53,821 nucleotides of DNA. Source: a virus. Its lineage: Duplodnaviria > Caudoviricetes. Shown here one piece after another: positions 1,869 through 51,470 of the stretch. The stretch is from positions 1 through 53,821 of the IMG/VR virus record IMGVR_UViG_3300006124_000002, one strand, 5' to 3'. Position 1 is the first letter of the stretch; the number at the start of each line of letters is the position of its first letter. The notes under the pieces were generated by a model. That model made no database searches. It had not been told where the DNA came from and worked only from the letters and a program-made list of their open reading frames with translations. A program made the translations under genes and the position numbers.

Positions 1869-4800
1869 TTATCGCATATCTCTCAAGAGATCCAATGCGG
1901 CGGCTGAAGTATCTTTTCTCCTGTCCTTTGCCCTATCATAAACAGATAGTTGTTCTTGGTTAAGACTGTTCAAGAAGTCTTTCACTTGATCCTTGTTTGG
2001 GAACAATCTCATAGAAGGATATGTGTTTTTATAATATTTTTGAATCGTTGAAGCTGGTTCTTTTTCCAGAAGTTTTTGCATTTCAATCCTAGCATTGGTC
2101 ATGTTTCCAATCATTAACGCATGATTTAGATCACGATATTTTGCTGAATGTCCAGCTTCCCTATCTTCAATTTTATTATCCAATTTGAAGTGATTTGCCA
2201 AAGTGTACATACGAGACTCATCACTAGGAGCTTGCTCAAGTTTAACACCAAATGTGGAGAACAATTGCTTTTGATATTGACCAGCAAATTGTTGATTCGG
2301 TTCACCACTAGCGGCTTCTTTAGCGGCTGAATAAATTGTAGCTCCAGCAATAGGAAGAGGAACAGAATCCTCTAGCATTCCTTTCCACTTCTGACCGGGT
2401 GCATAATATGTACCCAACATATTTTTGTTGGTAACAGCATCCCATACTGGACGCATAGGAACGGATGAACGACTACGGAAATAGTCCATTGCGGTTTGTA
2501 ATGCATCTCCAGTTCTCTCATATCCCTTCATCAAAAGATGAGTTGTTTCCATAGCAAGGGACATTGGATTAAGGAAGAACCCCGGCCCTCCCCAAGCATC
2601 TGGAATCCAAGCACTAATCTTTGCTCCAATTCCTTCCTCTGGATTTTCCCATGTAGGAGTTCCCCTTGTTGCGTAATTGATCATTTGGTTAGCAACAAAT
2701 TGTGCAACCATCATTCCACCAACTGATCGTGCAAGGACTCCAGCAAAAAGACGCTTGCCAGTTGCGGCATCAAGCAATGCCTTTCCTGTCTGACCCATTG
2801 CACCAAGTTCAGTACGGATTAGACCTTCGTTCCATTGAGGGGCAAGGAACATAAACCTAGCAGTATCTTGCATAGTTTTGCTTTTTAGAAGCCCCTGCCT
2901 TCCAAGATTTCCGAAACGAGTATTAAGATCCTTGCTTACCATCCTAGCGACATCAGCTTCTGGTAAACTTGGATAAGCATTACGATAGCGTTGGAACTCA
3001 AGCAACCAACTTTCGGACATTGCTCCACGCTGGAATTGATTAAAAAGCCAAGAGTTGAAGTCTCCAAGACCGGGTATTTTATGTACCCAATCTTGATGCA
3101 GAGCATCAGAAATACCACCAACATTGTATCCTGTCTTAACGGCAAGGTTTAAGAGACGCTTGTTTTCTAATAATCCTTTTGCCCATTTCTTTGGAATCTC
3201 TCCATTGGCAATCATCTTCTGCAACTCTGGTAATGATTGATCAAGAAGCGTTGCTCCTTTGCGATATGAAGGTACAGGAAGTTTGAATGTTTTAATTCCA
3301 AGTGCTTTGATCAAAGAATCCCAAATTGCAATACGACCAAGGTGATATGTATCCAACCCAAGAGTAATTGATTTGCCAGCACCAGCAGTCTTCTGAATGG
3401 TTTGACCAACCATGTTTTTGCTCCATGCAGAAGGGTCATTCAAAGCCCCAATAATGCCTTCATAACCATCTTTGATTGCCACACGCTGACCAGCAAGAGT
3501 CTCTTGTTTGTAACCTCTAGGAACTTGTAGATAGCTTGAACCATCTGGACGCTTGACGATTGAAACCTTGGTAGCAATAGGATCGCCAGATGCAGGGTCA
3601 ATAGTGCCTTTTAAGGAGTCAATCCAAGAACGATAGTTAATTGATTTCTGACCAGATGACAGACGCTTTTGGAGAAGATCAACAGCATTGATGCTCTTCG
3701 GGTCTATACCAGCGGCAATTGAATCAGCAAAGGTATCATAGGTACGCATTTTGCGAAAACCAGTTGCTGATCCTGCACCAGAACCACCAAAGAGTTCTTG
3801 TTCCTCTAGGTCTTGGTAGTGGGGAACATATCCATCACGCACAGGAGTATCTATTCCGTTAGCATTCTCTTGGGCTACTTGGTGAAGACCAATCTGTTCG
3901 TACTTTTGTGCTATAGGATCAAAGCGAGAGAAGTTTTTATCAGCAAAGTCAATTGCGGCTATGGCTTTCTTCTTCCATGCAGGATTTGCATCTGGAGAGT
4001 TTTCAATCTTTTGCCTCATGTTTGCCAACTCCATCTGATCTCCCTTGGCTTCAATTACGAATGAAAGAGCATCAGCGGCCTTATCTTTCTGGCCCTTGAA
4101 CTCACGCTTGAGATCATTAGCAACTTCATTGCTCTGTTGTTTTGAATAGATATTGGCGGCATTGTCACCAGCATCCCTCATGTATGAGATAGCTTCCTTG
4201 GCTGGCTTACGCTTGAAAGTATTTACGATGGTATTGCGAGTCTTCTTAACAACAGGTGTTGCTTGGAAACGAGTCTCAATCTCCTCCCGCTTCTTGGATG
4301 CCTCTTGTTCAGTAGGACGATCCTGCTGGAACATGGGCTGACCTTCTTTGGTCACGCTCTCACGCATCTCTGGCGTGATCTCGACTTTCCAGATTTTGGT
4401 AGCTGGTTTTTCTTCAACACGAATTTTGCCATCCAAAACATTATTTGAAAGATACTCTTCAGCAAGTTGCTTGTTTTGGAAATTTCTAGTTTTACCATTT
4501 TCAAGCTGAACTACATATTTACCAACATCACCTAAATCTGTTTCTTCAACCTTTGCGCCCCACTTCTTGACATACTTGCCAATCTCTTTGGGAAGGATCT
4601 GGTCGTAGAAGCCTTTCATGCCTTCGCCGCCTACTTTGAGGTCAACGCCTGAAAGGGTTCTAACTCCACCTTTGTATGGTGCATCGACAATCTTTTGTGC
4701 CGCTTCTTTTCCAATATAATCAGCTAATTTATCTGGAGTAACATCAGATGCTACTTCTCTTAAATGTATAGCATCTCCACCTTTTTCACGAACCCAAAGT

Positions 4801-7800
4801 TTTTTTCCAATAGGACTCCATTGAACTTCGTCAACTTGCTTACTCAAGTCATAGCGTTCGGACTGCGTGTCTCCTTTAGTCCAGCCTACCCACTCCTTGC
4901 CGCTTGCGATAGCATCACGCAAGGCTCGCTTAAACATCTGGACTGACCAATCTTTGCGGAAGGGAGCGTCAGGTACTCCAGATTTAGCCATAAGATCAGC
5001 CTTACGTTCTGCTTCTGCTTCGGTGTCTTCTTGACCTACAATTCTTCCATTTTCATCATAAATAGACCAGACCTCTCCCTCAATAGTATCTCTTGGCAGA
5101 ACCCTTAATTCTTTATTATTTTCTCCCTTATATCCTTGCTCCCTTCCCTGCTGATGCCTGTCAGACTGAATCTCTTCAATAAACAAGCCATTGCGTCCCT
5201 CGCTATCAGGACGCTCGTCTAGCCTCATGTGGGCTACATAGTTGGGGATGTCTCGGAAGTGAGAAGAGGTGTATTCAACTTTTGAACGACCCTGCGTTTC
5301 TTGTGAAAGGCGATTATATTCAGCAATGTTCTCTTCGGTATGTGGAAGAGATTTTAACTCGTTCATTCGCTTAATTCGCGAATCTGTTGAAGGCATCGTC
5401 AGCACAACCTCCCTGTAGTTTTCGCCATTAGGCAGAATCAAATCTCCTCTTTCATATTTTGGACGATTCTCAATACCAGCATCGTTAATCTCCAAGGCTT
5501 CCACACGGGCAGTCATGTGGTTAGCTTCTTTCCACAAGGCATTTGCCCTTGTCTGATTGCCAACACGCTGTGCTTGTCTAGCTTGCCTTTCAAATTCCTC
5601 TTGCTTTGCATACAGGGTATCAGCGGTACTCTTGTCACGGATGTTTTGAAGCCTCATTAACTCTTGGAATGTTCCGCTTCCAAGACGATCATCAATAGCA
5701 CCAAGAGGAGCCTTGGCATTTTCCTTCTCAAGATATGCAAGCCTTTCCTTATCGGCATTTGATAGAACTTCATCTGGTCTTGCACCAAGGCGAACCTCCT
5801 CAAACTTCACAGCACCCTCGTTCTTGAGGTAGTCAAGCACCTCCTCCTTGGTGACGCTCTTCTTGCCCTCTAGGAAGCCATCAATGTTGCTCCACTTGAG
5901 TTCGTCAGGCTTTACTCCACTTCCCTTTGCAGGGTCAATGATAGCCTTGATCTGCTCTACAGATGCCTTGTTCGGCATCTTGTCTGTTATCGTCCTTTGG
6001 AGTTGGGAGTAGAAGTCTTTGTTCCTTTTCTCTTCGTCCTGTTGGAACATTGGGCCTTTGCCTTCCTCTGGAGCAGACACAGGCTCATCCTTGCCTTCAG
6101 CAAACTTGCTCAATCCATCGACAAGCATATCCCTAGCCTTCTGGATGTCCTTGGTAAAGTCTCCACCCATCTTCCAATCCTTAAGTTGGTAGAGGAGTTT
6201 GTTCAGCCAATCAACGGTCTTGGTAGCAAGTTCCTTGAAAGACTTGGGATTCTTCTTGGCAAGATCATTCCAGAACTTCGGGTCTTGCATGGCATCCCCA
6301 AGGAAGTCTCCAATGTGTTCATCAAAGAAACGGGACTTGTCATAACCAGCCGCTTTGTATTTGGCTTCTAATCCTGCCCAATCCTTAATCAAAGGCGTAA
6401 TCTGCATTCGCAGACTATTTGCCAGCACAGGAGAGTTCAGTTCAATGTGATGCCACAATTCGTGACCAGCAGTAAAGAGATGCGGTCTAGCACCATCAAT
6501 CTTTAAGAAAATATAATCCTTGAGTGCAGGGTCAACACCCGTAGCACCATTGATCTTGGTTCCCTCTTCGCCTTTGTAGAGAACGATCTTCTTGCCAAAA
6601 ATCCCTGCTAATTTGTCTGCCAGTTTATAGGCAGGGTTGTTAATTAACTGGCGTAGATCTTGTAGGGTTGGGAGATGGAACCTTTGTCTGTTATTCGTTC
6701 GTGCATCTTCCTTATTGAGTCGCTGTAGTGCCTCGTTCGCTTCATCAAAGAAAGCCGTATTTGGCATCGCTGAACGCAGTTCAGCTTCGGTCGTTTGGCT
6801 TGTTTCACCTTCGCCTCCTACTTTTTCACCTTCACCTTGTGGCTGTGCAGTTCCCGCTTCAGCTTCTCCTTCTGGCTTGGCTTCAGCGGAGACACTTTCG
6901 ACAGAAGATACCCCACCTGTTTTTTGCTCTTGGTTTTGGGTTGTTGTTTCATCTTTTGGTGCAAATCGTTCATCACCTTGAGGGGTTGGAATCTCAATGT
7001 CAATGGGTTTTCCTTGCCTCAACAATTGCATCTGATCGGCAATCTTTGATGCTCTTGCCCTCAATGCAGGGCGGTCTTGATGATCTTCTGGCAAATTGCC
7101 AAGTTGATTTGCAACATCAGCGGCTTGTTGTTTCAACACACCCCATTGAGCATCCACCTTTTGTTGATCAACAGTCTGTGGTGCTGGAGCTTGATCATTT
7201 GCCCCGGCGTTAATCTTGGCTTCTTTTTCGTTTACAAAAGGATTTTTAGAAGGAGTCAATCCAGCATGAAGTCCAGCAAATGCACCAAATGCAATATCTG
7301 GAACAGCTTGCTCAATTGTAGGCATGACATTCTGTCCTTGAGCCGCACGAATGCCAGCAGATGTTGCCAGATTAACTCCAGCGGCGGCTGTACCTCCTGC
7401 AAGGCCCCTAACCAAAGGAGAAACCCCTTTTAACAAAGCACTTGTTGCTTTAGCAGTAAGTTCTCCACCAACTGTATATGCGGCAAGTGCAGGAACTGTG
7501 GCTAGTGCCGCTTCACTTCCTGCTCTGTGTCCAGCGGAATCAAGCTGTGATTGATCAGTCACTCCCTGCTGTTTTAATTCAGCAACCTTGGCATCATATC
7601 CTTCACCATAGGCTTGACTCCCACCCATAATTGCCATCGTTGGCAATGCCAATGGCCCTGCCAACATAGCTGGAGCTAATCCTACAACATTACCAACACC
7701 TCTTCCAAGCTGTGCCGCTATGGATGTGTCTTTTTGAGATACTCCAAATGCAGGAAACATTCCAGCGGCTTGTTCACTTAATACTCCCGCTTGCTGACCA

Positions 7801-8525
7801 ATCTGTTTCCTTTCCTGTATCAATGCTTGTTGTTGAGCATCAGAAGCGTATTGAGGAAGTTTAAGTGTTTGTTCTTTCTGTGCTTGAAGATCACCAATCT
7901 GTTGTTCCAGATCATTAATCTGATTTCCATATTCAGCAGTAGAGAATCCTTGCTTCTTAACAATCCCTTGAATGGCATCTAGGGATGCTTGCCTATCAGC
8001 AATTGCTTTATCAAAAGCAGATGTAGCTTCTTGAGTAGTTGCACCACGCTGGAAAGGAGCATTTACTCCAGAGATATCTGTTACTGGTGCGGCTCCTGCT
8101 CTCTCAAACCCACCAGCAGTTTGTATTGCTCCAGCGGCGGTCTGTGCGGCGGTAGACTTGGCAAGGTTTTCATACCAAGGAATTGCAGGAAGATTGATAA
8201 CCTTTCCTGTTTGCTCTGGAGCTACTACTGGCTCCATGAATTGAGCATACGGATTAGAACTTTGTTGTGGTTGCGGTGTAGCTTGAGGAACCGATTGCGT
8301 GTAATTGGAAGTCAGATCATTCGGATCAGACAATGGCAAGTTGTTAGAAGTTGCCTGTTGATTTAAGAATTGTTCATACGGATTAGCTCCATATGCATTT
8401 GATGCTCCAGTATTAGGAGGAAGATTTAATGGTTTACCACTTGGGCTAATTGGCCCTTCATCTGGAACTACAGCTTGCTGATCGTTTTGAGATGGAGCAA
8501 GGAACTGTTCATACACATTTGCCAT
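1869..8525 (-). CDS. Giant internal virion / DNA ejection protein with polyvalent-protein-type domains, 2218 aa
   Basis: Last and largest of three post-tail genes. N-terminal NxY(E/A)QF repeats, Ala/Gly-rich hydrophobic segment, HELWHH (HExxH) motif, and a central module containing NYREVVL, FIEEIQSD and GMKGFYD. Confidence 0.75.
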   Translation of the reverse strand: MANVYEQFLAPSQNDQQAVVPDEGPISPSGKPLNLPPNTGASNAYGANPYEQFLNQQATSNNLPLSDPNDLTSNYTQSVPQATPQPQQSSNPYAQFMEPVVAPEQTGKVINLPAIPWYENLAKSTAAQTAAGAIQTAGGFERAGAAPVTDISGVNAPFQRGATTQEATSAFDKAIADRQASLDAIQGIVKKQGFSTAEYGNQINDLEQQIGDLQAQKEQTLKLPQYASDAQQQALIQERKQIGQQAGVLSEQAAGMFPAFGVSQKDTSIAAQLGRGVGNVVGLAPAMLAGPLALPTMAIMGGSQAYGEGYDAKVAELKQQGVTDQSQLDSAGHRAGSEAALATVPALAAYTVGGELTAKATSALLKGVSPLVRGLAGGTAAAGVNLATSAGIRAAQGQNVMPTIEQAVPDIAFGAFAGLHAGLTPSKNPFVNEKEAKINAGANDQAPAPQTVDQQKVDAQWGVLKQQAADVANQLGNLPEDHQDRPALRARASKIADQMQLLRQGKPIDIEIPTPQGDERFAPKDETTTQNQEQKTGGVSSVESVSAEAKPEGEAEAGTAQPQGEGEKVGGEGETSQTTEAELRSAMPNTAFFDEANEALQRLNKEDARTNNRQRFHLPTLQDLRQLINNPAYKLADKLAGIFGKKIVLYKGEEGTKINGATGVDPALKDYIFLKIDGARPHLFTAGHELWHHIELNSPVLANSLRMQITPLIKDWAGLEAKYKAAGYDKSRFFDEHIGDFLGDAMQDPKFWNDLAKKNPKSFKELATKTVDWLNKLLYQLKDWKMGGDFTKDIQKARDMLVDGLSKFAEGKDEPVSAPEEGKGPMFQQDEEKRNKDFYSQLQRTITDKMPNKASVEQIKAIIDPAKGSGVKPDELKWSNIDGFLEGKKSVTKEEVLDYLKNEGAVKFEEVRLGARPDEVLSNADKERLAYLEKENAKAPLGAIDDRLGSGTFQELMRLQNIRDKSTADTLYAKQEEFERQARQAQRVGNQTRANALWKEANHMTARVEALEINDAGIENRPKYERGDLILPNGENYREVVLTMPSTDSRIKRMNELKSLPHTEENIAEYNRLSQETQGRSKVEYTSSHFRDIPNYVAHMRLDERPDSEGRNGLFIEEIQSDRHQQGREQGYKGENNKELRVLPRDTIEGEVWSIYDENGRIVGQEDTEAEAERKADLMAKSGVPDAPFRKDWSVQMFKRALRDAIASGKEWVGWTKGDTQSERYDLSKQVDEVQWSPIGKKLWVREKGGDAIHLREVASDVTPDKLADYIGKEAAQKIVDAPYKGGVRTLSGVDLKVGGEGMKGFYDQILPKEIGKYVKKWGAKVEETDLGDVGKYVVQLENGKTRNFQNKQLAEEYLSNNVLDGKIRVEEKPATKIWKVEITPEMRESVTKEGQPMFQQDRPTEQEASKKREEIETRFQATPVVKKTRNTIVNTFKRKPAKEAISYMRDAGDNAANIYSKQQSNEVANDLKREFKGQKDKAADALSFVIEAKGDQMELANMRQKIENSPDANPAWKKKAIAAIDFADKNFSRFDPIAQKYEQIGLHQVAQENANGIDTPVRDGYVPHYQDLEEQELFGGSGAGSATGFRKMRTYDTFADSIAAGIDPKSINAVDLLQKRLSSGQKSINYRSWIDSLKGTIDPASGDPIATKVSIVKRPDGSSYLQVPRGYKQETLAGQRVAIKDGYEGIIGALNDPSAWSKNMVGQTIQKTAGAGKSITLGLDTYHLGRIAIWDSLIKALGIKTFKLPVPSYRKGATLLDQSLPELQKMIANGEIPKKWAKGLLENKRLLNLAVKTGYNVGGISDALHQDWVHKIPGLGDFNSWLFNQFQRGAMSESWLLEFQRYRNAYPSLPEADVARMVSKDLNTRFGNLGRQGLLKSKTMQDTARFMFLAPQWNEGLIRTELGAMGQTGKALLDAATGKRLFAGVLARSVGGMMVAQFVANQMINYATRGTPTWENPEEGIGAKISAWIPDAWGGPGFFLNPMSLAMETTHLLMKGYERTGDALQTAMDYFRSRSSVPMRPVWDAVTNKNMLGTYYAPGQKWKGMLEDSVPLPIAGATIYSAAKEAASGEPNQQFAGQYQKQLFSTFGVKLEQAPSDESRMYTLANHFKLDNKIEDREAGHSAKYRDLNHALMIGNMTNARIEMQKLLEKEPASTIQKYYKNTYPSMRLFPNKDQVKDFLNSLNQEQLSVYDRAKDRRKDTSAAALDLLRDMR

Positions 8526-19626: not shown

Positions 19627-22152
19627 TTATTTGTTAATATAAAACGGCAGTTTCAACAATGACGAAACTCCAAAAGGATTGGTTTTCCCAAGAATGTAGT
19701 TGAGTGGGAATGGGAAGTTCAGCATCACAAAAATGTTTACCGTGGGTTTGCTGGTAGCACCATGATAAGTAATGGTTCCAAGAACGGTAGCTTGGAGGGG
19801 TGTCTGTGCCGGGTAGTAAACATTTGCGTTGCCTGTAATCAAACACACAGGGATTCCGCTTGCTCCCGTATTTTGGACAAAGATGGCATTTCCTGTCACA
19901 GTTGCTCCAGACTGCATGAAGTCCGTCCCTTGGAACTTCCAAGTCGTAATGACATTGTTTGCGGAGTCGTAGGTTAATCCATTGACCGGGCCGTTTGCAT
20001 ATCCCGTAATGTCTACAGCAACACCGCTGGTTGCAGTAACATAACGGAAACGAGCATTTCCAGTAACCAATCCAATGTTGATTGAGGTATCATTAAAGTC
20101 TCCGTTGGATATTGCTCCTACATATCCTGTAAATGGATATGTGCGTCCTGCCCCGCTATTGTAAAGGGCAGTTACTTCAGATTGGGACAAGGCACGATTC
20201 CAAATACCAATTTCATCCATCTGCCCATTAATAAAATAAGCTCCATCATTTTCTGAACCAAACAAACTTCCAGATGTGTTTCTAATATTAACAACATCAC
20301 CACTTGTAGAATTAAAGAAAACTTGTGTTCCATCCAAATACACAGCAACAGTTCCACCATTAACTTTTCCAGTTATAATAACATTATGCCAATTTGAATC
20401 AGAAATTGTTGCACTTGTTGAATATCCAGTTGGGCTACCTCCATATAAAGCAAGCGCAATAACTCCAGATGGATCAAGATAGCATTGCATTGCCAAAGAT
20501 GGAATTGTTCCGCAAAAAACTTGGTAAGTTCCAGTTGCTGGATTAACAAACTTTACCCATTGAGAAATAGACCATTCTCCAGTTGTTTGATTAGAAAGTG
20601 TTGGAATGCCAAGTGTATTTGTTCCATTAAAAACAGCATCTCCTCCAATAATTCCAGTTCCTAAAGCAACGCCACCATTGTTAGTTAGCGTGTTTCCATT
20701 TCCAGTAGAATCTAAAAGACTTACTCCACCAGATCCATTGTTGTTAAGATTCCAATATGCCAATGCTCCAGCAGTCAAAGGATCACCACCAATTACTCCT
20801 TGGTTTTGGGAAGCATCGTGGAAAGATGCCGTAGTGCCTCCAGCAGTTCCTACTTGTCCAGAGTTGTAGGAATTTCCATAGAAAGCACTTGTTCCAGTTA
20901 CAATGCCAGCATTGTGGGAGTTGTCTCGGAAGGTAAGAGATATATTATATCCAGTACCGGGATAACTGATTGTTCCGTTATTGTAGCTGTTGTTAAAAAA
21001 CTGAACAGTTCCATTGGTTAGCGTTCCAGCATTGTAACTGGAATCATAAAAATATACTTGTTGAGCATTTCCTCCAGTAGACCCTGTGCTGGTAAAAAAC
21101 GATGTGTTATAAAAATACGCATCTCCAAAAATTGCTATAGGAATAGCAAATTGAGTAGGGCCATGAAGATATAGTGCTAGAAGAGATGCGCTTCCAGATG
21201 AGTCTTGTGTAGGCCAGCAGTCAAAGAAAGTTACTTGGTCATCATTTGCGGCAGTAGGGATAGCGTTTCCGCTAATTCCATCATTGCCAAACCAGTTTGT
21301 ATATTCATTCCATTCACCGTTAAATTGTCCTCCCGGCCCGTAATCACTAAAATAGACACCATATCCAATATAAACTGCCCCTCTATTACTATTTGTATTA
21401 TATTGCCCACCAACTACCACATTAGGATTTGGATAAACTACGAAAGGAAGATAATCTAATGTTCCAAAGTTTTGGGAGTAGTCATGAAAACTAGCACTTC
21501 CAAAAATATAACTATAATTAGCTGTGGAATTGTAAAAACGAATATCTATATCTCCTTGAGTTCCTCTTTCATTTTCCATGTATCCATGAAAATCAGTATT
21601 AATAAAATTAACAATTTGAATTAAATGATTAGCAGAGTCATATGCTCCTCCATCAGCCCACCCAACTCCATATCCAGTAACATCAGTTATTTGCCATATC
21701 CCACCATTTAATGTTGCCGTAAGGTAATTAAATTTTGCAGTTCCAGAAACCCCATACCCACAATATGAAGTATTATTAAATATAGCGTTTCCAGCTAATC
21801 CATTATTATTTGATATTAAAGGAGAAGAAACTGGATCTGTATAAGAATTACCATTAAATGTGGCTAAATTACAAGCCAATCCATATCCATAATTTGGATT
21901 AATATTAGTTGCTAAATAAGTATTGTTATTAAATACTGCTGTATTAACTCCTATAACCCATGATTGTCCTCCATCTCCGGGTGTTGTAACATAGCTACTA
22001 TCTCCAAAAATTGGAGTCTGGACAATAATATTGTCCGTAGCAACAGGCAATACGCCAGCAGGAACCGTAGCTCCTACATTTGTCCACCAGTTAGCGGTGT
22101 TCCCGTAATCACCATCCCCGCTTACTGTAGCGTTAAAATAAAGCGTTGCCAT
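19627..22152 (-). CDS. Tail spike / receptor-binding protein: beta-helix-like repeats plus a LamG (concanavalin A-like) domain, 841 aa
   Basis: Repeats of F(Y/H)D.S.N.G; LamG pattern AYWNLN...WSISQWVK...WHNV...VYLDG...GQMDEIGIWNRALSQSEVTALYN at about 20130-20770. Confidence 0.7.
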   Translation of the reverse strand: MATLYFNATVSGDGDYGNTANWWTNVGATVPAGVLPVATDNIIVQTPIFGDSSYVTTPGDGGQSWVIGVNTAVFNNNTYLATNINPNYGYGLACNLATFNGNSYTDPVSSPLISNNNGLAGNAIFNNTSYCGYGVSGTAKFNYLTATLNGGIWQITDVTGYGVGWADGGAYDSANHLIQIVNFINTDFHGYMENERGTQGDIDIRFYNSTANYSYIFGSASFHDYSQNFGTLDYLPFVVYPNPNVVVGGQYNTNSNRGAVYIGYGVYFSDYGPGGQFNGEWNEYTNWFGNDGISGNAIPTAANDDQVTFFDCWPTQDSSGSASLLALYLHGPTQFAIPIAIFGDAYFYNTSFFTSTGSTGGNAQQVYFYDSSYNAGTLTNGTVQFFNNSYNNGTISYPGTGYNISLTFRDNSHNAGIVTGTSAFYGNSYNSGQVGTAGGTTASFHDASQNQGVIGGDPLTAGALAYWNLNNNGSGGVSLLDSTGNGNTLTNNGGVALGTGIIGGDAVFNGTNTLGIPTLSNQTTGEWSISQWVKFVNPATGTYQVFCGTIPSLAMQCYLDPSGVIALALYGGSPTGYSTSATISDSNWHNVIITGKVNGGTVAVYLDGTQVFFNSTSGDVVNIRNTSGSLFGSENDGAYFINGQMDEIGIWNRALSQSEVTALYNSGAGRTYPFTGYVGAISNGDFNDTSINIGLVTGNARFRYVTATSGVAVDITGYANGPVNGLTYDSANNVITTWKFQGTDFMQSGATVTGNAIFVQNTGASGIPVCLITGNANVYYPAQTPLQATVLGTITYHGATSKPTVNIFVMLNFPFPLNYILGKTNPFGVSSLLKLPFYINK

Positions 22153-30754: not shown

Positions 30755-30806
30755 AGTTGATGCAAATACTTGTCTTTGTTTCTAAAAGTTGTCAATACTT
30801 TTGGAC

Positions 30807-32732
30807 ATGGAATATAACGGATTTTCTTTAGAGCAACCAAAAGATACAAATTACGGAATACCAAATTTGATTCATGTTCCACAAATGTTTCGTGAGCTAA
30901 CGGCATATCGTTTGACTCGTGGAGAGTTTGGAAGACGTGAAAGAATCAAAAATGGTATTAAATTAGAACAATCTGGTTTGTTAAATCCTGCACAGCACAT
31001 GATCAATGCCTTCCAATTGATCTACGGCAATGATGTTTTGCTCCATTCTCAAGGAATACCCAACAATTATGCCATAGACATTATTGATTTGTTTTGTAAT
31101 GAGAACGATTGGGGCATTGCAGGGTGTGCAAGTAGTGGAAAAACCTTTTCAGTTGCCGCTTGCATTGTGATTGATTGGCTTTGCGCCCCCGATTGTACAT
31201 CCACATATGTTGCTTCTACCTCTTTGGACGCATCAGAAGACCGTCTTTGGGGTAAAGTATGTACGCTTTACCGTACAGCAATGAGGAATATTCAAGCCCA
31301 ATATGGTGCAAATCAGAGTATTGGAAACCTTGTAGAGTACCGTAGAATGATTGTTTTTGAGACAATTGACACCAAAGATACGGAACGAGACTATACAAAT
31401 GCTATTAAAGCATTGGCTTTTCCCAAGGGTGGTGAAGGAAAACGGTCTGTAGAAAATACACGGGGTAGAAAGAATGCCAGAATGCGGTTGTTTTTGGACG
31501 AATTGGCTGAAATGGATCTCTACGCATTGGATACCCGTGTCAACCTTGGTGCTAACCCCGATTTTATCTTTGGCGGCATGGCAAACCCAGCGGCTACCGC
31601 AAACAATCCCCATACGGAGCTATGTCAGCCCGATGATCCTATGGAATGGGATGCCGTAACCCGTTACACAAAGAAATGGAAGACTCGTACAGGAGTAGCA
31701 TTGCATCTTTCTGGAGAAGATAGTCCAAACTTCAAGGTTCCAGATGCTGAAATACCCCCATTTGATCGTTTCCTTACCGTCCAAGGAGAGGCCGCTACTT
31801 TAAAACGATGCTATGGCAATAAGAATGCCCTAGAATACTGGCGAAATGTCTATGGATGGTGGCCCGATTCTTCCGTAGAACTCACAATCTTCTCAAAACA
31901 GTTCATTCAAGCGTGTGATATTAATTGGGAACCCGTATGGAGTAACAGAACACGGGTAGTTTGCGGCTTTGACCCTGCATTTACGGCAGGAGGAAACAGA
32001 TGTGCGGCTACATTTTGCCGATTTGGGCCAAATGATACCGGGAGAAACCTTGGATTCTACCTTGGAACCCGTGAATATACCTCATCTGTGGGTGATGTTT
32101 TTGAGGAAAGCATTGCAATGCAGTTGGTTAAAGATTGTTTGGAATATGGAGTCCATCCAAGGGACTTTGGATTGGATATTTCGGGTGATGGCGGCAAGAT
32201 GATGAGGGCAATTATCATCGAATGGAGTAAGTTCCATCCAGAAGCCATGTTTGTATTCCCCATTTCCTCAATGGGAATGCCTACGGAAAGGAAAATCAGC
32301 AATCTGGATAAGCGAACTTGTAAAGAAGCGTATGATCGGTTGGTTACGGAGTACTGGTTTGCCGTCCATACGGCCCTGTCTACACGCTCTTTGGTTGGTA
32401 TTGATGTAGAGAAGCACTCTCAAGTAGTAAACGAGTTGTGTAGCCGTCTGTACTACCACAAGGGAAGGAAGGTTGCCGTGGAAAAGAAGCTGGATATGAA
32501 GCATAGGTTGAAGAAATCTCCCGATTTGGCTGACTCTTTGACCTATGCCGTCCAGATGCTTCGCCGGGCAGGACTAGAGTTTTCGTTTGAGGAGGAGTCA
32601 GAATCTTTGGACATCCAAGAAATCAGCGATTGGGAGAACCGATTGATCCATTCCAAAAACAACACCCAAGAAAAACTTGAGGATGATGAATGGGGATATG
32701 GTGGCAAGGGTTGTGATGAGGACGGCTTCTAG
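30807..32732 (+). CDS. terL: Terminase large subunit
   Basis: Walker A GCASSGKT, Walker B LFLDELAE, motif C MANP, nuclease CGFDPA and KSPDLADSL. Confidence 0.9.
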   Translation: MEYNGFSLEQPKDTNYGIPNLIHVPQMFRELTAYRLTRGEFGRRERIKNGIKLEQSGLLNPAQHMINAFQLIYGNDVLLHSQGIPNNYAIDIIDLFCNENDWGIAGCASSGKTFSVAACIVIDWLCAPDCTSTYVASTSLDASEDRLWGKVCTLYRTAMRNIQAQYGANQSIGNLVEYRRMIVFETIDTKDTERDYTNAIKALAFPKGGEGKRSVENTRGRKNARMRLFLDELAEMDLYALDTRVNLGANPDFIFGGMANPAATANNPHTELCQPDDPMEWDAVTRYTKKWKTRTGVALHLSGEDSPNFKVPDAEIPPFDRFLTVQGEAATLKRCYGNKNALEYWRNVYGWWPDSSVELTIFSKQFIQACDINWEPVWSNRTRVVCGFDPAFTAGGNRCAATFCRFGPNDTGRNLGFYLGTREYTSSVGDVFEESIAMQLVKDCLEYGVHPRDFGLDISGDGGKMMRAIIIEWSKFHPEAMFVFPISSMGMPTERKISNLDKRTCKEAYDRLVTEYWFAVHTALSTRSLVGIDVEKHSQVVNELCSRLYYHKGRKVAVEKKLDMKHRLKKSPDLADSLTYAVQMLRRAGLEFSFEEESESLDIQEISDWENRLIHSKNNTQEKLEDDEWGYGGKGCDEDGF

Positions 32733-32788: not shown

Positions 32789-32865
32789 TGGCACAGCCTG
32801 TTGGAATCGAACCAACCCAGTCGGATTTGGAGTCCAACTCGCCCATCCTTGGAACATGAGACTGC
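32789..32865 (-). tRNA. trnW: tRNA-Trp (CCA)
   Basis: Acceptor GCAGTCT/AGGCTGT, anticodon arm TTGGA-CTCCAAA-TCCGA, T arm GTTGG-TTCGATT-CCAAC, G73, encoded CCA. Confidence 0.88.
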
Positions 32866-36015: not shown

Positions 36016-36216
36016 TTATGTGTATTGCACCAATTGCCCTTGATGATGAGCAAGGAGTTGGAGTATTGCCTTTCCTTCCGCAGTAACGATATGACCGCTA
36101 CCTTGGCACTTCCAGCATGGTTCTCCACTTCCCTCATCGTACCAGTTACGACCCGTGCCTCCGCACTCATCGCAACTTTTCTCTAGGGCATTTGATGTAT
36201 TGAATAGTGCATTCAT
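36016..36216 (-). CDS. Anti-TRAP (RtpA)-like DnaJ-type zinc-finger protein, 66 aa
   Basis: LEKSCDECGGTG...GEPCWKCQGSGHIVTAEGKAILQLLAHH parallels the B. subtilis anti-TRAP layout (two CxxCxGxG motifs plus a TxxG helix); GGAG upstream. Confidence 0.65.
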   Translation of the reverse strand: MNALFNTSNALEKSCDECGGTGRNWYDEGSGEPCWKCQGSGHIVTAEGKAILQLLAHHQGQLVQYT

Positions 36217-36273
36217 ACAAATCTCCAACTAGCAGATTTTTTATTTTCCCGCAATACCTTTTTTATTTTCTAA

Positions 36274-36501
36274 ATGAACAGACAAGACGATGCATTTGAG
36301 GAAGCAAAACAACTTGCCAGGGAAGGCAAGGAATATTCACACTTGATCAATCGGATGTGGGTAATAAACTCCGACCAGTTTGACCACTTCTTAACCACGC
36401 TAGACCCAGAGATTGCCACCAAAACCATTTACGGAATGCTGGCACTCAAACGGAGACAATCCAAAACAATCCCCAAAGGCCGGGGAAGACCACGCAAATA
36501 A
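36274..36501 (+). CDS. Hypothetical protein with a C-terminal AT-hook-like GRGRPRK
   Basis: ORF track and motif. Confidence 0.6.
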   Translation: MNRQDDAFEEAKQLAREGKEYSHLINRMWVINSDQFDHFLTTLDPEIATKTIYGMLALKRRQSKTIPKGRGRPRK

Positions 36502-36538
36502 GTTCATACTCTAATTTTATTGGTTAAATTTTAGACTA

Positions 36539-36612
36539 TACCGATTGGTGTAACGGTAGCACAGGGGACTTTGACTCCCCTAGTCATGGTTCAAATCCAT
36601 GATCGGTAGCCA
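36539..36612 (+). tRNA. trnQ: tRNA-Gln (TTG)
   Basis: Acceptor TACCGAT/ATCGGTA, anticodon arm GGGGA-CTTTGAC-TCCCC, T arm CATGG-TTCAAAT-CCATG, encoded CCA. Confidence 0.93.
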
Positions 36613-36952
36613 ATCAAAGGCTTTAGAAAAGGACGCATTTTCAATAATCCGTCCTTCTGAAAAGGATAGATACCCTGCTACCATTCAAGAGTGGTGGAAA
36701 TGGTTTACTCCCAAATTGTAGTAGGATGTCCAATCTACTTTTTTTGAAGGAAATAGTGGGTAGTTTTTCTTTCAGGAATGTAGCAGTTCATAGACATATT
36801 TGCGTTCACGGTAGCGCGAACACTACACTCGTCTTGTTTATCGTGCAGTCTGGAAGTGTAGCATGATTTGATTAGCGGATGCTGGGATAATCACCCATGA
36901 GGGGAATCCAACTACTAATTGTAAACATTTTAGTAGTTCTTTATAAATAAGA

Positions 36953-36994
36953 ACCCCCCTGGTGCGCTTGCTCACAGGCAGAGGCGTGAGGGGT
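36953..36994 (-). ncRNA. Second copy of the small GCCTCTGCC-N-GCAAGC motif
   Basis: CCCCT-CA-CGC-CTC-TGC-loop-GCA-A-GCG-CACC-AGGGG, 3' of the CCA-ending RNA. Confidence 0.45.
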
Positions 36995-37007
36995 ATAATT
37001 ATAAAAT

Positions 37008-37246
37008 TGGAGTCCCGCTGGGCGAACCATGTGGAATCGAGTTTCCCCGATACGGGACTGTTGAGGACGGCCCGCTATTGTGCGACCTATCGCCTATCCT
37101 TTGGCTATACGGCTATTCCCCGATCCGTAAAGGGCTGGAATCGTTCGCTTCCGATTCTGTAAGGACTCATCTCTGGCGGTAGTTTCCTACCCTATGGGAG
37201 CGACCCACCATCGGATATTTCCAATGCAACCAGCAATGATTCCGAT
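37008..37246 (-). ncRNA. Candidate ~240-nt multi-domain structured RNA ending in CCA
   Basis: Stems ATCGGA/TCCGAT, GGTAG-GAAA-CTACC, GAATCG/CGATTC, TCCTT/AAGGA, AGTCCCG/CGGGACT, ATCGGG-GAAA-CTCGAT. GNRA loops occur on this strand; TTGCAA-17-AATAGT lies upstream. Confidence 0.6.
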
Positions 37247-37264
37247 TGAACTATTAGGAATTCC

Positions 37265-37474
37265 CTAAAAATTTGCAAGCCCCTTCTCAATACCAAAAGT
37301 AGCATTTTTCCACATCTTCACCTGTCCCGTATTAAAGTGCTTCACGCTCCCATCAGCACACATACACACCGTCCACACATCATTGTCAAATACCCCACTA
37401 CTCTCCACATAAATAGCATACCCATCTCCAACAGGAGTCAGCACAGGCATTGGATTACGGAATTCGTGGATCAT
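37265..37474 (-). CDS. Hypothetical phage protein, 69 aa
   Basis: Compact beta protein (TPVGDGYAIYV...NDVWTV). Confidence 0.7.
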   Translation of the reverse strand: MIHEFRNPMPVLTPVGDGYAIYVESSGVFDNDVWTVCMCADGSVKHFNTGQVKMWKNATFGIEKGLANF

Positions 37475-37479
37475 AAAAT

Positions 37480-37695
37480 CTACTCCAATCCCCGAATCAT
37501 ATCCCTATCCCAATCAGATAGCCTAGGATCATTTATATGCTCCTTCAAAATCTTACTCAACCTCTTCCTCTCCATCTTCGCCCCACCATAGCCTCCCGGC
37601 TCTTTACTAGCCGTTTCACCAAGCTCCGTAGCAAGACTCCTCAACAACATGATGCTAGGCTTTGTAAACTCTTCTGGAGGGTATCTCAAACTCAT
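37480..37695 (-). CDS. Hypothetical protein, 71 aa
   Basis: ORF track; adjacent to the 37265-37474 gene. Confidence 0.6.
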   Translation of the reverse strand: MSLRYPPEEFTKPSIMLLRSLATELGETASKEPGGYGGAKMERKRLSKILKEHINDPRLSDWDRDMIRGLE

Positions 37696-37915
37696 TACAC
37701 ACTACTTTGCACATTCAGCAATCTATTGTCAATCTACTACACATCTACAAAGTTCTAAAATAAGGAGAAGTTTCCAGATACTGATTTTTTTTGGGTGGCC
37801 TATGTCGCACAAGCTAGCCCCGTATAATGGTGTATGTACCCCTCCCAACCACCCGTAAGGAATTCTTATGGGAGAGCCTACCATGAGAGGTTAGTTGCCT
37901 AGCTTAAACGGGAAA

Positions 37916-38461
37916 CTAACTAGGGATTATCTCTGATTCTATAGTGTTGGAGGGGCTTCCTAACTGTTGCTGATTCGTTAGGTTTATACCCTTGGAAAGA
38001 CCCACTATAAACTGGAAGTAATTAGTTGTCCCGGTGTCGTGCTTGTCAGAGAAGTTATCCCCTGCCATCTTGTTATCAATATTAATAGCTTCCAACTTGC
38101 TAACTACCTTCAACTTCCTAGTTGTCCCTTGCTCTCCTTGAGTCTCTACTAACTCCTGTATCAGGTCAGCATCGGGATTGCTAATGTCGCACCTAACTGC
38201 CCTAGCTAAAAAGTTACGCTTTTCGGCAAGAGTTAGTGCATTAGCTAGAAAGCTACTTTCCTTTAGAGTAGCAATATAGGAAGCTACTCTGTTATCTGCT
38301 TCTAACTTACAAGCGGCTGAACCAGCCTGTTCAGAGTTAGCGGCTTTATACCCTGCTAACAGATATGATCTAGCTTTGTTTTCACCCTTTGCTCTGTGAG
38401 TACAATAGGCTAGTTGTTTAGTTGTGAGGCTAGGAAGTGAAGTTGTTTTTTGCGTAGTCAT
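37916..38461 (-). CDS. terS: Terminase small subunit
   Basis: LTTKQLAYC...G...SYLLAGYK....A.SAA.KL.....V..YI HTH pattern, followed by KLEAI....KM.G. Confidence 0.75.
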   Translation of the reverse strand: MTTQKTTSLPSLTTKQLAYCTHRAKGENKARSYLLAGYKAANSEQAGSAACKLEADNRVASYIATLKESSFLANALTLAEKRNFLARAVRCDISNPDADLIQELVETQGEQGTTRKLKVVSKLEAINIDNKMAGDNFSDKHDTGTTNYFQFIVGLSKGINLTNQQQLGSPSNTIESEIIPS

Positions 38462-48916: not shown

Positions 48917-49497
48917 GCGACAACGAATGGCGAGAGCTTGGCCCTGACGAGATCCCACAAACAGGAGACCAATCGTATGACGGCAATCTTTTTGAATGGG
49001 TTCATATTAAGTATTCAACCAAGGAGCCAGCGAGTAAGTTTTTGTTTCCTATCCGCACCCGCCGCCCGTTGCCAAAGCGGGAGGCGAAACCCATCGACAA
49101 CGAGATCGTAAGGCTCAAAGAGATGATTAAAGAAGCCGCAAAGCGTGGCGACGAAATGGCCGAGCATTGGAAAGAGCGAGCCGAGAAAGCTGAAGCACTC
49201 GTTAAACAACTCCACCACCTAGCAAAACTACTACCCGAAGCTAGTAAAACCGAATTACCACACACCGATAGTATGTCAACGAGCACAGACAATTTACAAA
49301 TGACAACGAACAATGACAGCGAGGTCGCAAGGCTCCGTGAGCTTTTGAGCCGAGCGATTGGTCATATATACCAACTGTATTTGGATATTGATCCATCTGA
49401 CTACCCAGAAGGCCACGAATATTATAAAAGAGAAATAGAAGACCTTGAAAAATTAACCCGACTCGCCCCCGCTCCAGAGGAACCTTGCAAATGTTAG
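48913..49497 (+). CDS. Modular protein with two NEVARLR-type repeats, 194 aa
   Basis: ORF track; N-terminal WRELGPDE....GD module. Confidence 0.7.
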   Translation: MSDNEWRELGPDEIPQTGDQSYDGNLFEWVHIKYSTKEPASKFLFPIRTRRPLPKREAKPIDNEIVRLKEMIKEAAKRGDEMAEHWKERAEKAEALVKQLHHLAKLLPEASKTELPHTDSMSTSTDNLQMTTNNDSEVARLRELLSRAIGHIYQLYLDIDPSDYPEGHEYYKREIEDLEKLTRLAPAPEEPCKC

Positions 49498-50096: not shown

Positions 50097-50729
50097 ATGA
50101 ACCCCGACACCACCAAAATGGAAACGCTAAATAAAGAACTCAACTTCATAGGCTTCCCTAAGATTGCACGGCTTAATCGCCAAGTCATCGTCACCGAGAA
50201 GATCGATGGAACTAATGCTCAGATACGCATCACTAAAGATGGTCAATTCCTAGTGGGGTCTCGCTCTCGCTGGATAACTCCTGATAACGACAACCACGGA
50301 TTCGCTAAGTGGGCATACGCCCATAAAGACTCCCTGATGGAGCTAGGCGTAGGCTCCCACTTCGGAGAGTGGTGGGGAAGTGGCATTCAGCGTGGCTATG
50401 GATACACGCAGGGAGAGAAATTCTTCTCCCTATTTAACGTACAGCGTTGGTGCTTGGAGGGAAGTGCCCCGCAAAAGATGCCTACCGCTGACCCTCGCAT
50501 TGAGAAATACCAAGACGTTCTTCCTGCTTGCTGTGGCCTTGTTCCGATTCTTGGAGTCGGAGACTTCAACGAGGCGAACAAGCAGATTGAGCGGCTAAAG
50601 ATCGAGGGGAGCCAAGCCGTAAAAGGATACATGAATCCAGAAGGAGTGATTGCGTTTCACGTTGCTGGAAATGTGGGATTCAAGGTCACGATTCAAAAAG
50701 ACGAGGAACCGAAAGGAAAAACAAAATGA
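50097..50729 (+). CDS. RNA ligase (Rnl2-type adenylyltransferase domain)
   Basis: FPKI.R, motif I TEKIDGTN, GSR.R, FGEWWGSGIQ, F.LF, PEGV, FK. Confidence 0.85.
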   Translation: MNPDTTKMETLNKELNFIGFPKIARLNRQVIVTEKIDGTNAQIRITKDGQFLVGSRSRWITPDNDNHGFAKWAYAHKDSLMELGVGSHFGEWWGSGIQRGYGYTQGEKFFSLFNVQRWCLEGSAPQKMPTADPRIEKYQDVLPACCGLVPILGVGDFNEANKQIERLKIEGSQAVKGYMNPEGVIAFHVAGNVGFKVTIQKDEEPKGKTK

Positions 50730-50932
50730 ACCCCAACAACAGCATTACCGAGTTCAGCAATCAACTCCTCGACGTTTGCGTCGAGTACCGAAAGCAACTC
50801 GACGAAACAAACAACGAGGTCGCAAGGCTCCGTGAGCTATTGGAGAGGCTATGCGATTCCGTTTTTGAAAATTGGGATGAAGGTATCGCCAATTATTTCC
50901 GCGAGGAAGCCAACAAGCTACACAACAAATAG
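50726..50932 (+). CDS. MNP/NEVARLR modular protein, 68 aa
   Basis: ORF track; contains the repeat. Confidence 0.65.
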   Translation: MNPNNSITEFSNQLLDVCVEYRKQLDETNNEVARLRELLERLCDSVFENWDEGIANYFREEANKLHNK

Positions 50933-50960: not shown

Positions 50961-51470
50961 ATGAACCCCGACACAAACAAATGCCCCAACTGCGGTGCTG
51001 AATTTGCAACACTCACAGACGGAACCACATTTACCTGCGGAACCAACCGCCACCCAGACGGGTCTCACTCTTGTTCCGACCTCTGCCGCGAGCGCGAGGA
51101 GAACACCAAGCTCCGAGAACTTCTCCATTGTGCGGCTGATGATCTCCAGCGGGATGATGCGGTTCGCGCACAGGCCCAGCGCGCACTTTACAAATTTCTG
51201 AAAAAGGGAGTCCGACTTACCCACGCTCCAGAGGAACCAACTAATCCGACTTGCCATAACACCACGCACAAATTCAGCCATTGCGATTGTAACGAACCTG
51301 TCAGTTTAGATCCTGCATCAAAAGTCACCCATGAGGGGAATGTCCATGCAAAGGATAAACAGCAAACCAACGAGATCGCAAGGCTCCGTGAGGAGATTGA
51401 TAAATTATGGGAGGCTTTATCAGAAAAAGAAGACCGAAGGACGTCAACGGCATGGTTCCAACTCAAATGA
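50961..51470 (+). CDS. MNPDT modular Cys-rich protein, ~169 aa
   Basis: Start at the repeat ATG 50961; CPNCG...FTCGT, APEEP, NEIARLR. Confidence 0.65.
   Translation: MNPDTNKCPNCGAEFATLTDGTTFTCGTNRHPDGSHSCSDLCREREENTKLRELLHCAADDLQRDDAVRAQAQRALYKFLKKGVRLTHAPEEPTNPTCHNTTHKFSHCDCNEPVSLDPASKVTHEGNVHAKDKQQTNEIARLREEIDKLWEALSEKEDRRTSTAWFQLK

Follow-up and report, generated by a model that had tools for sequence, protein, structure and literature searches.

Phage Genome and Locus

The window, which here means the whole stretch of DNA analysed, corresponds to an IMG/VR virus record that is complete at 53,821 bp and carries direct terminal repeats. Searches against PHROGs and Pfam placed a large terminase gene and, with a weak match, a small terminase gene, and also identified genes for an ArdC-like protein, RecT, an exonuclease, a Mom-like protein and an RNA-ligase domain, with ARAGORN finding only two tRNA genes, both between the terminase genes. 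A blastn search in distant mode of a phage GenBank collection found no similar deposited phage, and an Atlas query with the ArdC-like protein returned viral and mixed bacterial clusters only. The landmarks of the locus are as follows.

30789-32732, plus strand: large terminase (PHROGs/Pfam)
32789-32865, minus strand: tRNA-Trp (ARAGORN)
36539-36612, plus strand: tRNA-Gln (ARAGORN)
37265-37474, minus strand: 69-aa ORF, stop at 37267-37265
37916-38461, minus strand: small terminase, weak match (PHROGs/Pfam)

The RNA described below comes directly after the stop of the 69-aa ORF, lying on the minus strand between that stop and the terminator hairpin of the operon. Downstream of it, no gene on its own strand intervenes before tRNA-Gln, which is convergent. 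The surrounding region also contains genes for an HNH endonuclease and for terminase.

Several other features of the window were observed. The tRNA-Trp(CCA) called by ARAGORN at 32789-32865 (-) falls below the Rfam tRNA threshold, its best Rfam match being a sub-threshold one to the tRNA-Sec model (32.9 bits vs 47), and by eye it has an anticodon stem of 6 bp and an odd D arm. The non-coding stretch 36620-36950, between the terminator behind the RNA and tRNA-Gln, contains many CTAC/GTAG words and an inverted repeat, AACTACTAA...TTAGTAGTT, and may be a site of iterons or operators. At 36016-36228 (-) a 70-aa protein resembles Pfam Anti-TRAP (PF15777; 40.5 bits, cut-off 32), carrying a DnaJ-like CxxCxGxG zinc ribbon and being conserved beside the tRNA island in the related genomes G001-G003, G006 and G007. 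The RNA-ligase domain protein at 50097-50729 (+; PF09414, PHROG 548) is shared with G006 alone among the six genomes compared and may serve RNA or tRNA repair. Lastly, a 2218-aa ORF at 1869-8525 (-) has no PHROG family and no tblastn match among the six related genomes compared.

Architecture of the RNA

The RNA, referred to here as K RNA, extends over ~240 nt of the minus strand from about 37243 to 37003. Its modelled parts and flanking elements are listed in the order in which the RNA would be read.

37278-37251, minus strand: promoter-like site, TTGCAA (37278-37273), 16-nt spacer, TAATAG (37256-37251)
37243-37163, minus strand: 5′ domain, a four-way junction with closing stems P1 and P2 and hairpins P3, P4 and P5
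37226-37209, minus strand: hairpin P3 of the 5′ domain
37208-37194, minus strand: hairpin P4 of the 5′ domain
37191-37178, minus strand: hairpin P5 of the 5′ domain, with a GAAA loop
37157-37138, minus strand: hairpin P6, GAATCG-GAAGCGAA-CGATTC
37134-37062, minus strand: core K, 73 nt, modelled as an H-type pseudoknot and a 3′ half with hairpin H5
37134-37132 with 37121-37119, minus strand: pseudoknot stem S1 (CCC/GGG), interleaved with S2
37129-37125 with 37112-37108, minus strand: pseudoknot stem S2 (TACGG/CCGTA), interleaved with S1
37085-37072, minus strand: hairpin H5 in the 3′ half of the core
37059-37011, minus strand: 3′ three-way junction, stem AGTCCCG/CGGGACT and two hairpins
37051-37036, minus strand: GAAA hairpin of the 3′ junction
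37029-37019, minus strand: small TGG-TTCGC-CCA hairpin of the 3′ junction
37010-37003, minus strand: tail, CCA (37010-37008), one A and TTTT, likely the end of the RNA or a first terminator tail
36993-36943, minus strand: conserved downstream hairpin with TTCTTATTTAT tail, the resident terminator of the upstream operon
36962-37162, antisense: 66-aa ORF, frame not kept among homologues

A sequence-only reading of this DNA had drawn attention to a promoter-like site, GAAA hairpins, the TACGG/CCGTA pair, the terminal junction and its CCA, all of which are present at the positions given. Its observations that the RNA converges on a tRNA-Gln, at 36539-36612 (+), and shares a following motif with tRNA-Trp were likewise borne out, with a hairpin bearing GCCTCTGCC behind both tRNA-Trp (32865-32789, -) and K RNA. 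The core carries AUAG repeats in addition to the listed elements, and no tandem repeats were found in 36500-37400.

The letters of the proposed promoter TTGCAA-17-AATAGT are present, being the same as TTGCAA-16-TAATAG, but a consensus promoter scan left the site uncalled, with 8 of 12 consensus positions on a direct count where the tool requires 9. Its -35 hexamer overlaps the end of the 69-aa ORF. By eye, promoter-like hexamers precede each version of the RNA, those upstream of it in L107, L108, L119, L083, L129 and L128 having the form TTGNNN-16/17-TAnnnn.

The minus strand folds with an MFE of -83.3 kcal/mol (z -1.30), equalled by 23 of 200 shuffles, while the plus strand gives z -0.55, and folding energy alone is within chance. 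It is because of its conservation and covariation, and not its folding energy, that K RNA is taken to be more than chance.

Homologues and Horizontal Spread

Homologues were sought with nhmmer, as the sequence-only reading had proposed, in 103 loci fetched around relatives of two upstream proteins. The full RNA was found in five of them (L089-L091, L002 and L003), the central piece only in L082 and L083, and the downstream hairpin only in L004-L006 and L101, relatives that have the hairpin without the RNA. Pattern scans derived from the central piece brought the core to 13 IMG/VR contigs in all, with 10 of 13 metagenome matches carrying it and the other three (L122, L123 and L126) being chance matches without the rest of the core. 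In total 13 distinct versions of the RNA are known, all from freshwater samples and many of them close kin, and the 73-nt core recurs in unrelated phages.

A covariance model of the core built here (R1), with the window in its seed alignment, scored the window at 112.5 bits and L107, L108, L120, L128, L129, G007 and G010 at 100-111 bits. It detected no further core over 94 other related loci or over 61 loci fetched for other modules. Since neither of two core patterns, of 20-25 nt, matched in 185,579 species genomes, K RNA has no evident bacterial counterpart and appears to mimic no bacterial RNA, with the reservation that the patterns demand exact matches at 20-27 specified bases so that divergent relatives would be missed.

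R1 found one copy of the core each in G006, G007 and G008 (complete) and in G009 and G010 (partial), and none in G001, G002 and G003 (100, 100 and 91% complete) or in two fragments. Among the 81 ORFs of the window, no ORF occurs in every one of the other three complete genomes with the core while missing from the three without it, apart from a spurious antisense ORF over the RNA itself. G008 and the window have almost no proteins in common (26% for the terminase, 21% for an 871-aa protein), and their DNA shares only 528 nt in six blastn segments, the best of which is the core with the 3′ junction (136 nt, 94% identity, E 1e-53). L128 represents a further phage type with a T7-type head-tail connector. 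Because the core occurs in phages that share almost nothing else and no phage protein co-occurs with it, these sequence comparisons suggest that K RNA is an RNA gene of the phage tRNA island that is autonomous and moves horizontally.

Besides the RNA, the only DNA that the window shares with the otherwise unrelated G008 lies at window positions 51233-51361, 50759-50836 and 48919-48951 (80-100% identity) and, as a fourth stretch, at 20633-20760 (70% identity); in G008 these stretches sit near the genome ends.

Conservation and Covariation of the Core

The core was examined in an alignment (A1) of nine distinct sequences over 93 columns, which omits the L089-type, L115, L121 and L127 copies, each being the same over these 93 nt as the window or L002. 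Of its columns 58 are invariant. Under the pseudoknot model all 180 of 180 cells pair, against 25-48% in slid controls, a control that flatters the model as the structure was derived from the same sequences. Seventeen of the 20 core pairs never vary, one changes on one side and two change on both: the S1 pair 12:26 is CG in seven sequences and UA in two, and the H5 pair 62:71 is GC in seven and AU in two, giving a covariation score reached by 1 of 500 shuffles.

All five pairs of S2 (TACGG/CCGTA) are invariant in the nine sequences, with the remaining changes in the pseudoknot part falling in the inter-stem loops and the loop after S1 staying A-rich. The core data are thus compatible with an H-type pseudoknot but do not prove one: both strands of the TACGG/CCGTA pair put forward in the sequence-only reading are present and S1 covaries, but S2 itself does not vary. 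In the 3′ half RNAalifold favours another pairing, in which a U-to-C change turns G.U into G-C, and the fold of this half is ambiguous between the H5 model and that pairing.

A Modular Periphery around the Core

The 73-nt core (37134-37062) is the sole part common to all 13 distinct versions, remaining nearly invariant while the 5′ and 3′ domains around it are exchanged, lost or substituted. L107 retains the 5′ four-way junction and L083 lacks it, while in L129 the 5′ domain is shorter by exactly one hairpin, P3, and in L108, L119, L120 and L128 other GAAA-bearing domains stand in its place. A 28-nt deletion removes P6 in L002 and L003, showing it to be dispensable, and L120 has a different loop there. 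Where the outer helices are kept they change in compensatory fashion, P4 from GTGGG/CCCAT to GCGGG/CCCGT in L107 and P5 from GGTAG/CTACC to GGCTG/CAGCC in L129, and where they are lost, P3 and P6 go as clean hairpin indels. Compensatory changes thus support S1, H5, P4 and P5, while 17 of the 20 core pairs stay constant.

The 3′ junction is kept in L108, with a G.U to G-C change in its GAAA arm, and in L119 the GAAA arm is exchanged for a longer hairpin. L083 and L129, after an 85-nt insertion, retain only the stem with an 11-nt loop, and in L107, L120 and L128 the junction is replaced altogether. The terminal stem of L108 and L119 has CCATTTTGTTT behind it and continues without a break into the sequence that lies after the resident terminator in L005, and because of this the terminal stem reads as a terminator with CCA as part of its tail. 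The 5′ and 3′ domains are proposed to serve as exchangeable scaffolds or as modules for processing and termination, among them the GAAA-tetraloop junctions, the terminator-like stem and, in certain phages, the tRNA-like module. Judged by this pattern of conservation, K RNA is a structured RNA family outside Rfam, in which the part apparently under selection is the core and not the tRNA-like end.

Strand and Coding Potential

The orientation and pairing of the element point to the minus strand. Several pairs of the core are G.U on that strand, in L083, L119 and L129 the RNA lies directly behind tRNA-Trp in the same direction as tRNA-Gln/Asn/Trp, and in L107 it lies behind the promoter context that drives tRNA-Trp in the window. 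The alternative that the region is conserved as a 66-aa plus-strand ORF, raised in the sequence-only reading as a possible objection, is excluded because the core contains one-base indels and the overlapping ORFs of the homologues, 47 to 110 aa long, are split between two frames; the 28-nt deletion tells against it as well. K RNA is very probably a functional non-coding RNA.

Relation to Known RNA Families

Rfam 15 gave no match on K RNA at the gathering score, none at E<=2 over the whole window and none at E<=10 over 36400-37700, in keeping with the earlier suggestion of a candidate new structured RNA, and at E<=10 the L128 homologue matched no ribozyme or other known family. No Rfam 15 model for RNase P RNA, group I or II introns, GOLLD, ROOL, known ribozymes or riboswitches matched, and neither ARAGORN nor Rfam detected a tmRNA, so the earlier judgement by eye that K RNA is not a canonical tRNA, tmRNA, RNase P RNA or intron holds for these tools.

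The one nearby match was of the abiF model (RF03085) to the hairpin at 36953-36993 (-), at 22.6 bits against a gathering score of 37. K RNA itself is unmatched and was rejected as an abiF motif, only the neighbouring hairpin matching and that below threshold. It was likewise rejected as a type III antitoxin, tandem repeats being absent and its neighbours belonging to no toxin family in Pfam or PHROGs. Inspection by eye also argued against several other candidates: the core appears not to map onto the HDV-like (theta) ribozyme fold, and a K-turn, SRP domain IV and a CRISPR repeat mimic were rejected. TRAP requires spacers of 2-3 nt between triplets, and the UAG/AAG triplets of the core, with spacers of 5, 3, 2, 4 and 9 nt, seem unsuited to its binding. 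GGA motifs such as those of a CsrA sponge are present, yet the first is GGG in L129, which speaks against that role. Pairing of the core with tRNA-Trp and tRNA-Gln (RNAduplex) was equalled by 46% and 28% of shuffles respectively, and a genome-wide pairing scan with the core returned only the antisense strand of K RNA itself.

In the main texts searched no tRNA-island pseudoknot RNA of phages was described, which does not prove absence. A survey of IMG/VR, the same data source, reported 8495 novel structured-RNA candidates of 29-151 nt, some of them tRNA-like and others terminators (Fremin et al. 2023, PMC10690425). These candidates are absent from Rfam 15, and K RNA or its modules may be among them.

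Other RNA Elements of the Island

Further small RNA elements occur in the islands of these phages. abiF motifs (RF03085) score above threshold at L120:1443-1479 (+), with 42.5 bits, and L182:4291-4327 (+), with 53.9 bits, while the window (22.6 bits) and G006 (25.4 bits) have copies below threshold. An abiF-motif RNA is reported to neutralise its toxin by binding it directly (10.1101/2025.04.15.648962). A search of five complete genomes, a set to which the L120 and L182 records do not belong, turned up no Abi_2 gene, and the motifs may be orphan antitoxin-like anti-AbiF decoys or simply structured terminators.

A tRNA-like module, absent from the window, was found in 17 viral stretches (L177:599-676 (+), L128:10660-10737 (+), L181:11374-11451 (+) and others), either by itself after a promoter or preceded by other RNA domains. 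Its elements are U8, an acceptor-like stem of 11 bp interrupted by a single bulge, a GG-containing D arm, a covarying arm that closes on a small loop in place of an anticodon loop, and a canonical T arm whose loop reads TTCGATT. Over nine distinct copies 91% of cells pair and six pairs change on both sides, a score that none of 500 shuffles reached. A model of the module built here (R2), comprising the long acceptor-like stem, the GG D arm and the TTCGATT T loop, finds genuine tRNAs at E 1e-8 to 1e-4, while the stand-alone module scores 26 bits on the Rfam tRNA model against a gathering score of 29. A conserved domain of ~180 nt precedes the module in L182:7430-7607 (+), L180, L183, L186 and L188; it contains AAAGCGACCTGATCAATCG and had no Rfam match at E<=0.5 on L182, L186 and L188.

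A second unclassified structured RNA, M2, of ~130-160 nt, was observed in 51 viral stretches, at L129:1989-2142 (-), L120:1617-1745 (+), L106:6370-6529 (+) and in 48 more, and is absent from the window. It starts with TCGgGGGgATCTTCGGTGAACC, ends with TAGCGACCTGATCC and a U run, and has no Rfam match at E<=0.5. In 21 aligned copies of 27 distinct ones, five of 22 predicted pairs change on both sides, and M2 lies downstream of the core in L120, L129 and L083.

Alternative Explanations

K RNA could be a self-cleaving or otherwise catalytic RNA that processes polycistronic transcripts of the tRNA and small-RNA island, possibly by freeing the trailer of tRNA-Trp or the 5′ terminus of the tRNA-like module. 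Invariance at the nucleotide level (58 of 93 columns) is typical of catalytic and ligand-binding cores, a pseudoknot with a GAAA-tetraloop periphery would suit such a role, and the RNA follows tRNA-Trp in L083, L119 and L129, with the core directly abutting the tRNA-like module in L128. Yet no Rfam ribozyme family matches at E<=10, the HDV-like fold seems not to fit by eye, the RNA is separated from tRNA-Trp by a spacer of 45-75 nt, and most versions have their own promoter-like site and terminator and thus no evident need for processing. Catalytic processing is unlikely on this balance.

A role as a tRNA mimic, whose 3′ junction and CCA are recognised by RNase P, the CCA-adding enzyme, a synthetase or tRNA-cutting nucleases, is closest to what the sequence-only reading had inferred and is quite unlikely. 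The terminal stem is present in 10 of the 13 versions and is followed by CCA in four, TCCA in two, TCA in two and TTA in two. The 7-bp stem thus leads into CCA or TCCA in six of its ten occurrences, and the RNA sits in a tRNA island of a phage that encodes an RNA-ligase domain (PF09414). In L107 and L128, moreover, the core is fused to the covariation-supported cloverleaf without an anticodon loop, whose model also finds true tRNAs and which when standing alone comes to 26 bits on the Rfam tRNA model (gathering score 29). Against this, near-identical relatives differ from the window almost only at the bases after the terminal stem (CCA, TCA, TTA), so that the closest relatives have TCA or TTA in place of CCA. 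The 3′ junction of the window is matched by neither ARAGORN nor, at E<=10, the Rfam tRNA model or R2, the last of which detects only tRNA-Gln in the window. The junction is also a plain hairpin in L083 and L129 and missing in L107, L120 and L128, the invariant part being the core and not the tRNA-like end. The tRNA-like CCA end claimed for the window was in this way not sustained, CCA following four of ten stems, and mimicry is weak for the window copy, though the fusions in L107 and L128 speak in its favour.

It is very unlikely that K RNA is a cis-acting element, that is a riboswitch, an attenuator or a 3′ UTR stabiliser of the operon of the 69-aa gene. Its place between the stop of the 69-aa ORF and the operon terminator hairpin, the terminator-like stem after the core and an aptamer-like level of conservation would all agree with such a role, but the neighbouring gene changes from version to version: the window and L002 have the 69-aa ORF, L089 has a different gene, L083, L119 and L129 have tRNA-Trp, and L128 has capsid-region surroundings. 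In addition, no same-strand gene follows the RNA before the convergent tRNA-Gln.

Conservation at the level of DNA (as a recombination, homing or packaging site) or of a small protein on either strand, to which the sharp island of identity between unrelated phages, the nearby HNH endonuclease and terminase genes and the antisense 66-aa ORF might lead, is highly improbable given compensatory changes that preserve RNA pairs, G.U pairs that would be A.C on the opposite strand, the insertion, deletion or replacement of whole hairpins, one-base indels and shifting frames, and the lack of tandem repeats.

Proposed Mode of Action

K RNA would be a gene of ~240 nt, presumably transcribed separately, and one cassette among the small structured RNAs kept in the tRNA island between the terminase genes of freshwater tailed phages, with the 73-nt pseudoknotted core as its putative working part. 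It would act in trans, needing no phage protein of its own, with the invariant core binding some conserved component of the host, which could be a protein or a small molecule. The chances that K RNA acts in trans by binding a host component are judged to be about even.

K RNA is plausibly a decoy or sponge in phage-host conflict, an anti-defence role suggested by context and analogy because the RNA is accessory, mobile and partner-less and because of its RNA neighbours. In its most specific form the proposal makes the core an aptamer or a catalytic fold, active with no phage protein and carried between unrelated phages as a mobile anti-defence cassette. It might be an abundant sponge for a host immune-signal nucleotide, or might neutralise a host defence nuclease of RNA-guided or RNA-regulated type, and taken together these particulars have a low probability. 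If it is true that the core binds a host defence component or signalling molecule, counter-defence by RNA would gain a new class with K RNA. Along with the tRNA-like module, M2 and the orphan abiF motifs, K RNA suggests a phage toolbox of RNA cassettes kept beside the tRNAs.

Comparison with Known Systems

K RNA resembles tRNA, tRNA-like RNA and tmRNA in sitting in a tRNA island and in having a TTCG-type hairpin and a stem that ends in a CCA-like tail, and some of its relatives carry a tRNA-like cloverleaf behind the core. It differs in that the window copy has no cloverleaf, anticodon arm or T loop and in that its CCA is not conserved. The stable species 1 and 2 RNAs of phage T4 are small, stable RNAs of unknown function that are co-located and co-expressed with the phage tRNAs, and K RNA, compared with them by description only, is alike in its co-location with tRNAs.

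The antitoxin RNA ToxI has a pseudoknot. Like K RNA, type III antitoxins such as ToxI and the abiF-motif RNA (RCd22) are small structured RNAs, reported to neutralise a defence toxin by binding it directly (10.1101/2025.04.15.648962). abiF-like hairpins adjoin K RNA, but K RNA has no tandem repeats, no toxin gene nearby and no bacterial counterpart found in the species genomes scanned.

A parallel in setting is with GOLLD and ROOL, and structured RNAs of this kind in phage tRNA islands are a standing puzzle. Both are phage-encoded, often near tRNA islands, and have no known protein partner, with GOLLD comprising a universally conserved part and a variable part (10.1101/2024.12.08.627333, PMC5737381). 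K RNA differs in having no match to their Rfam models. It is like them in being phage-encoded, in its place in a tRNA island, in having conserved and variable parts (as in GOLLD) and in having no known protein partner, while at ~240 nt, against ~580 to >800 nt for theirs, it is much smaller and experimentally tractable.
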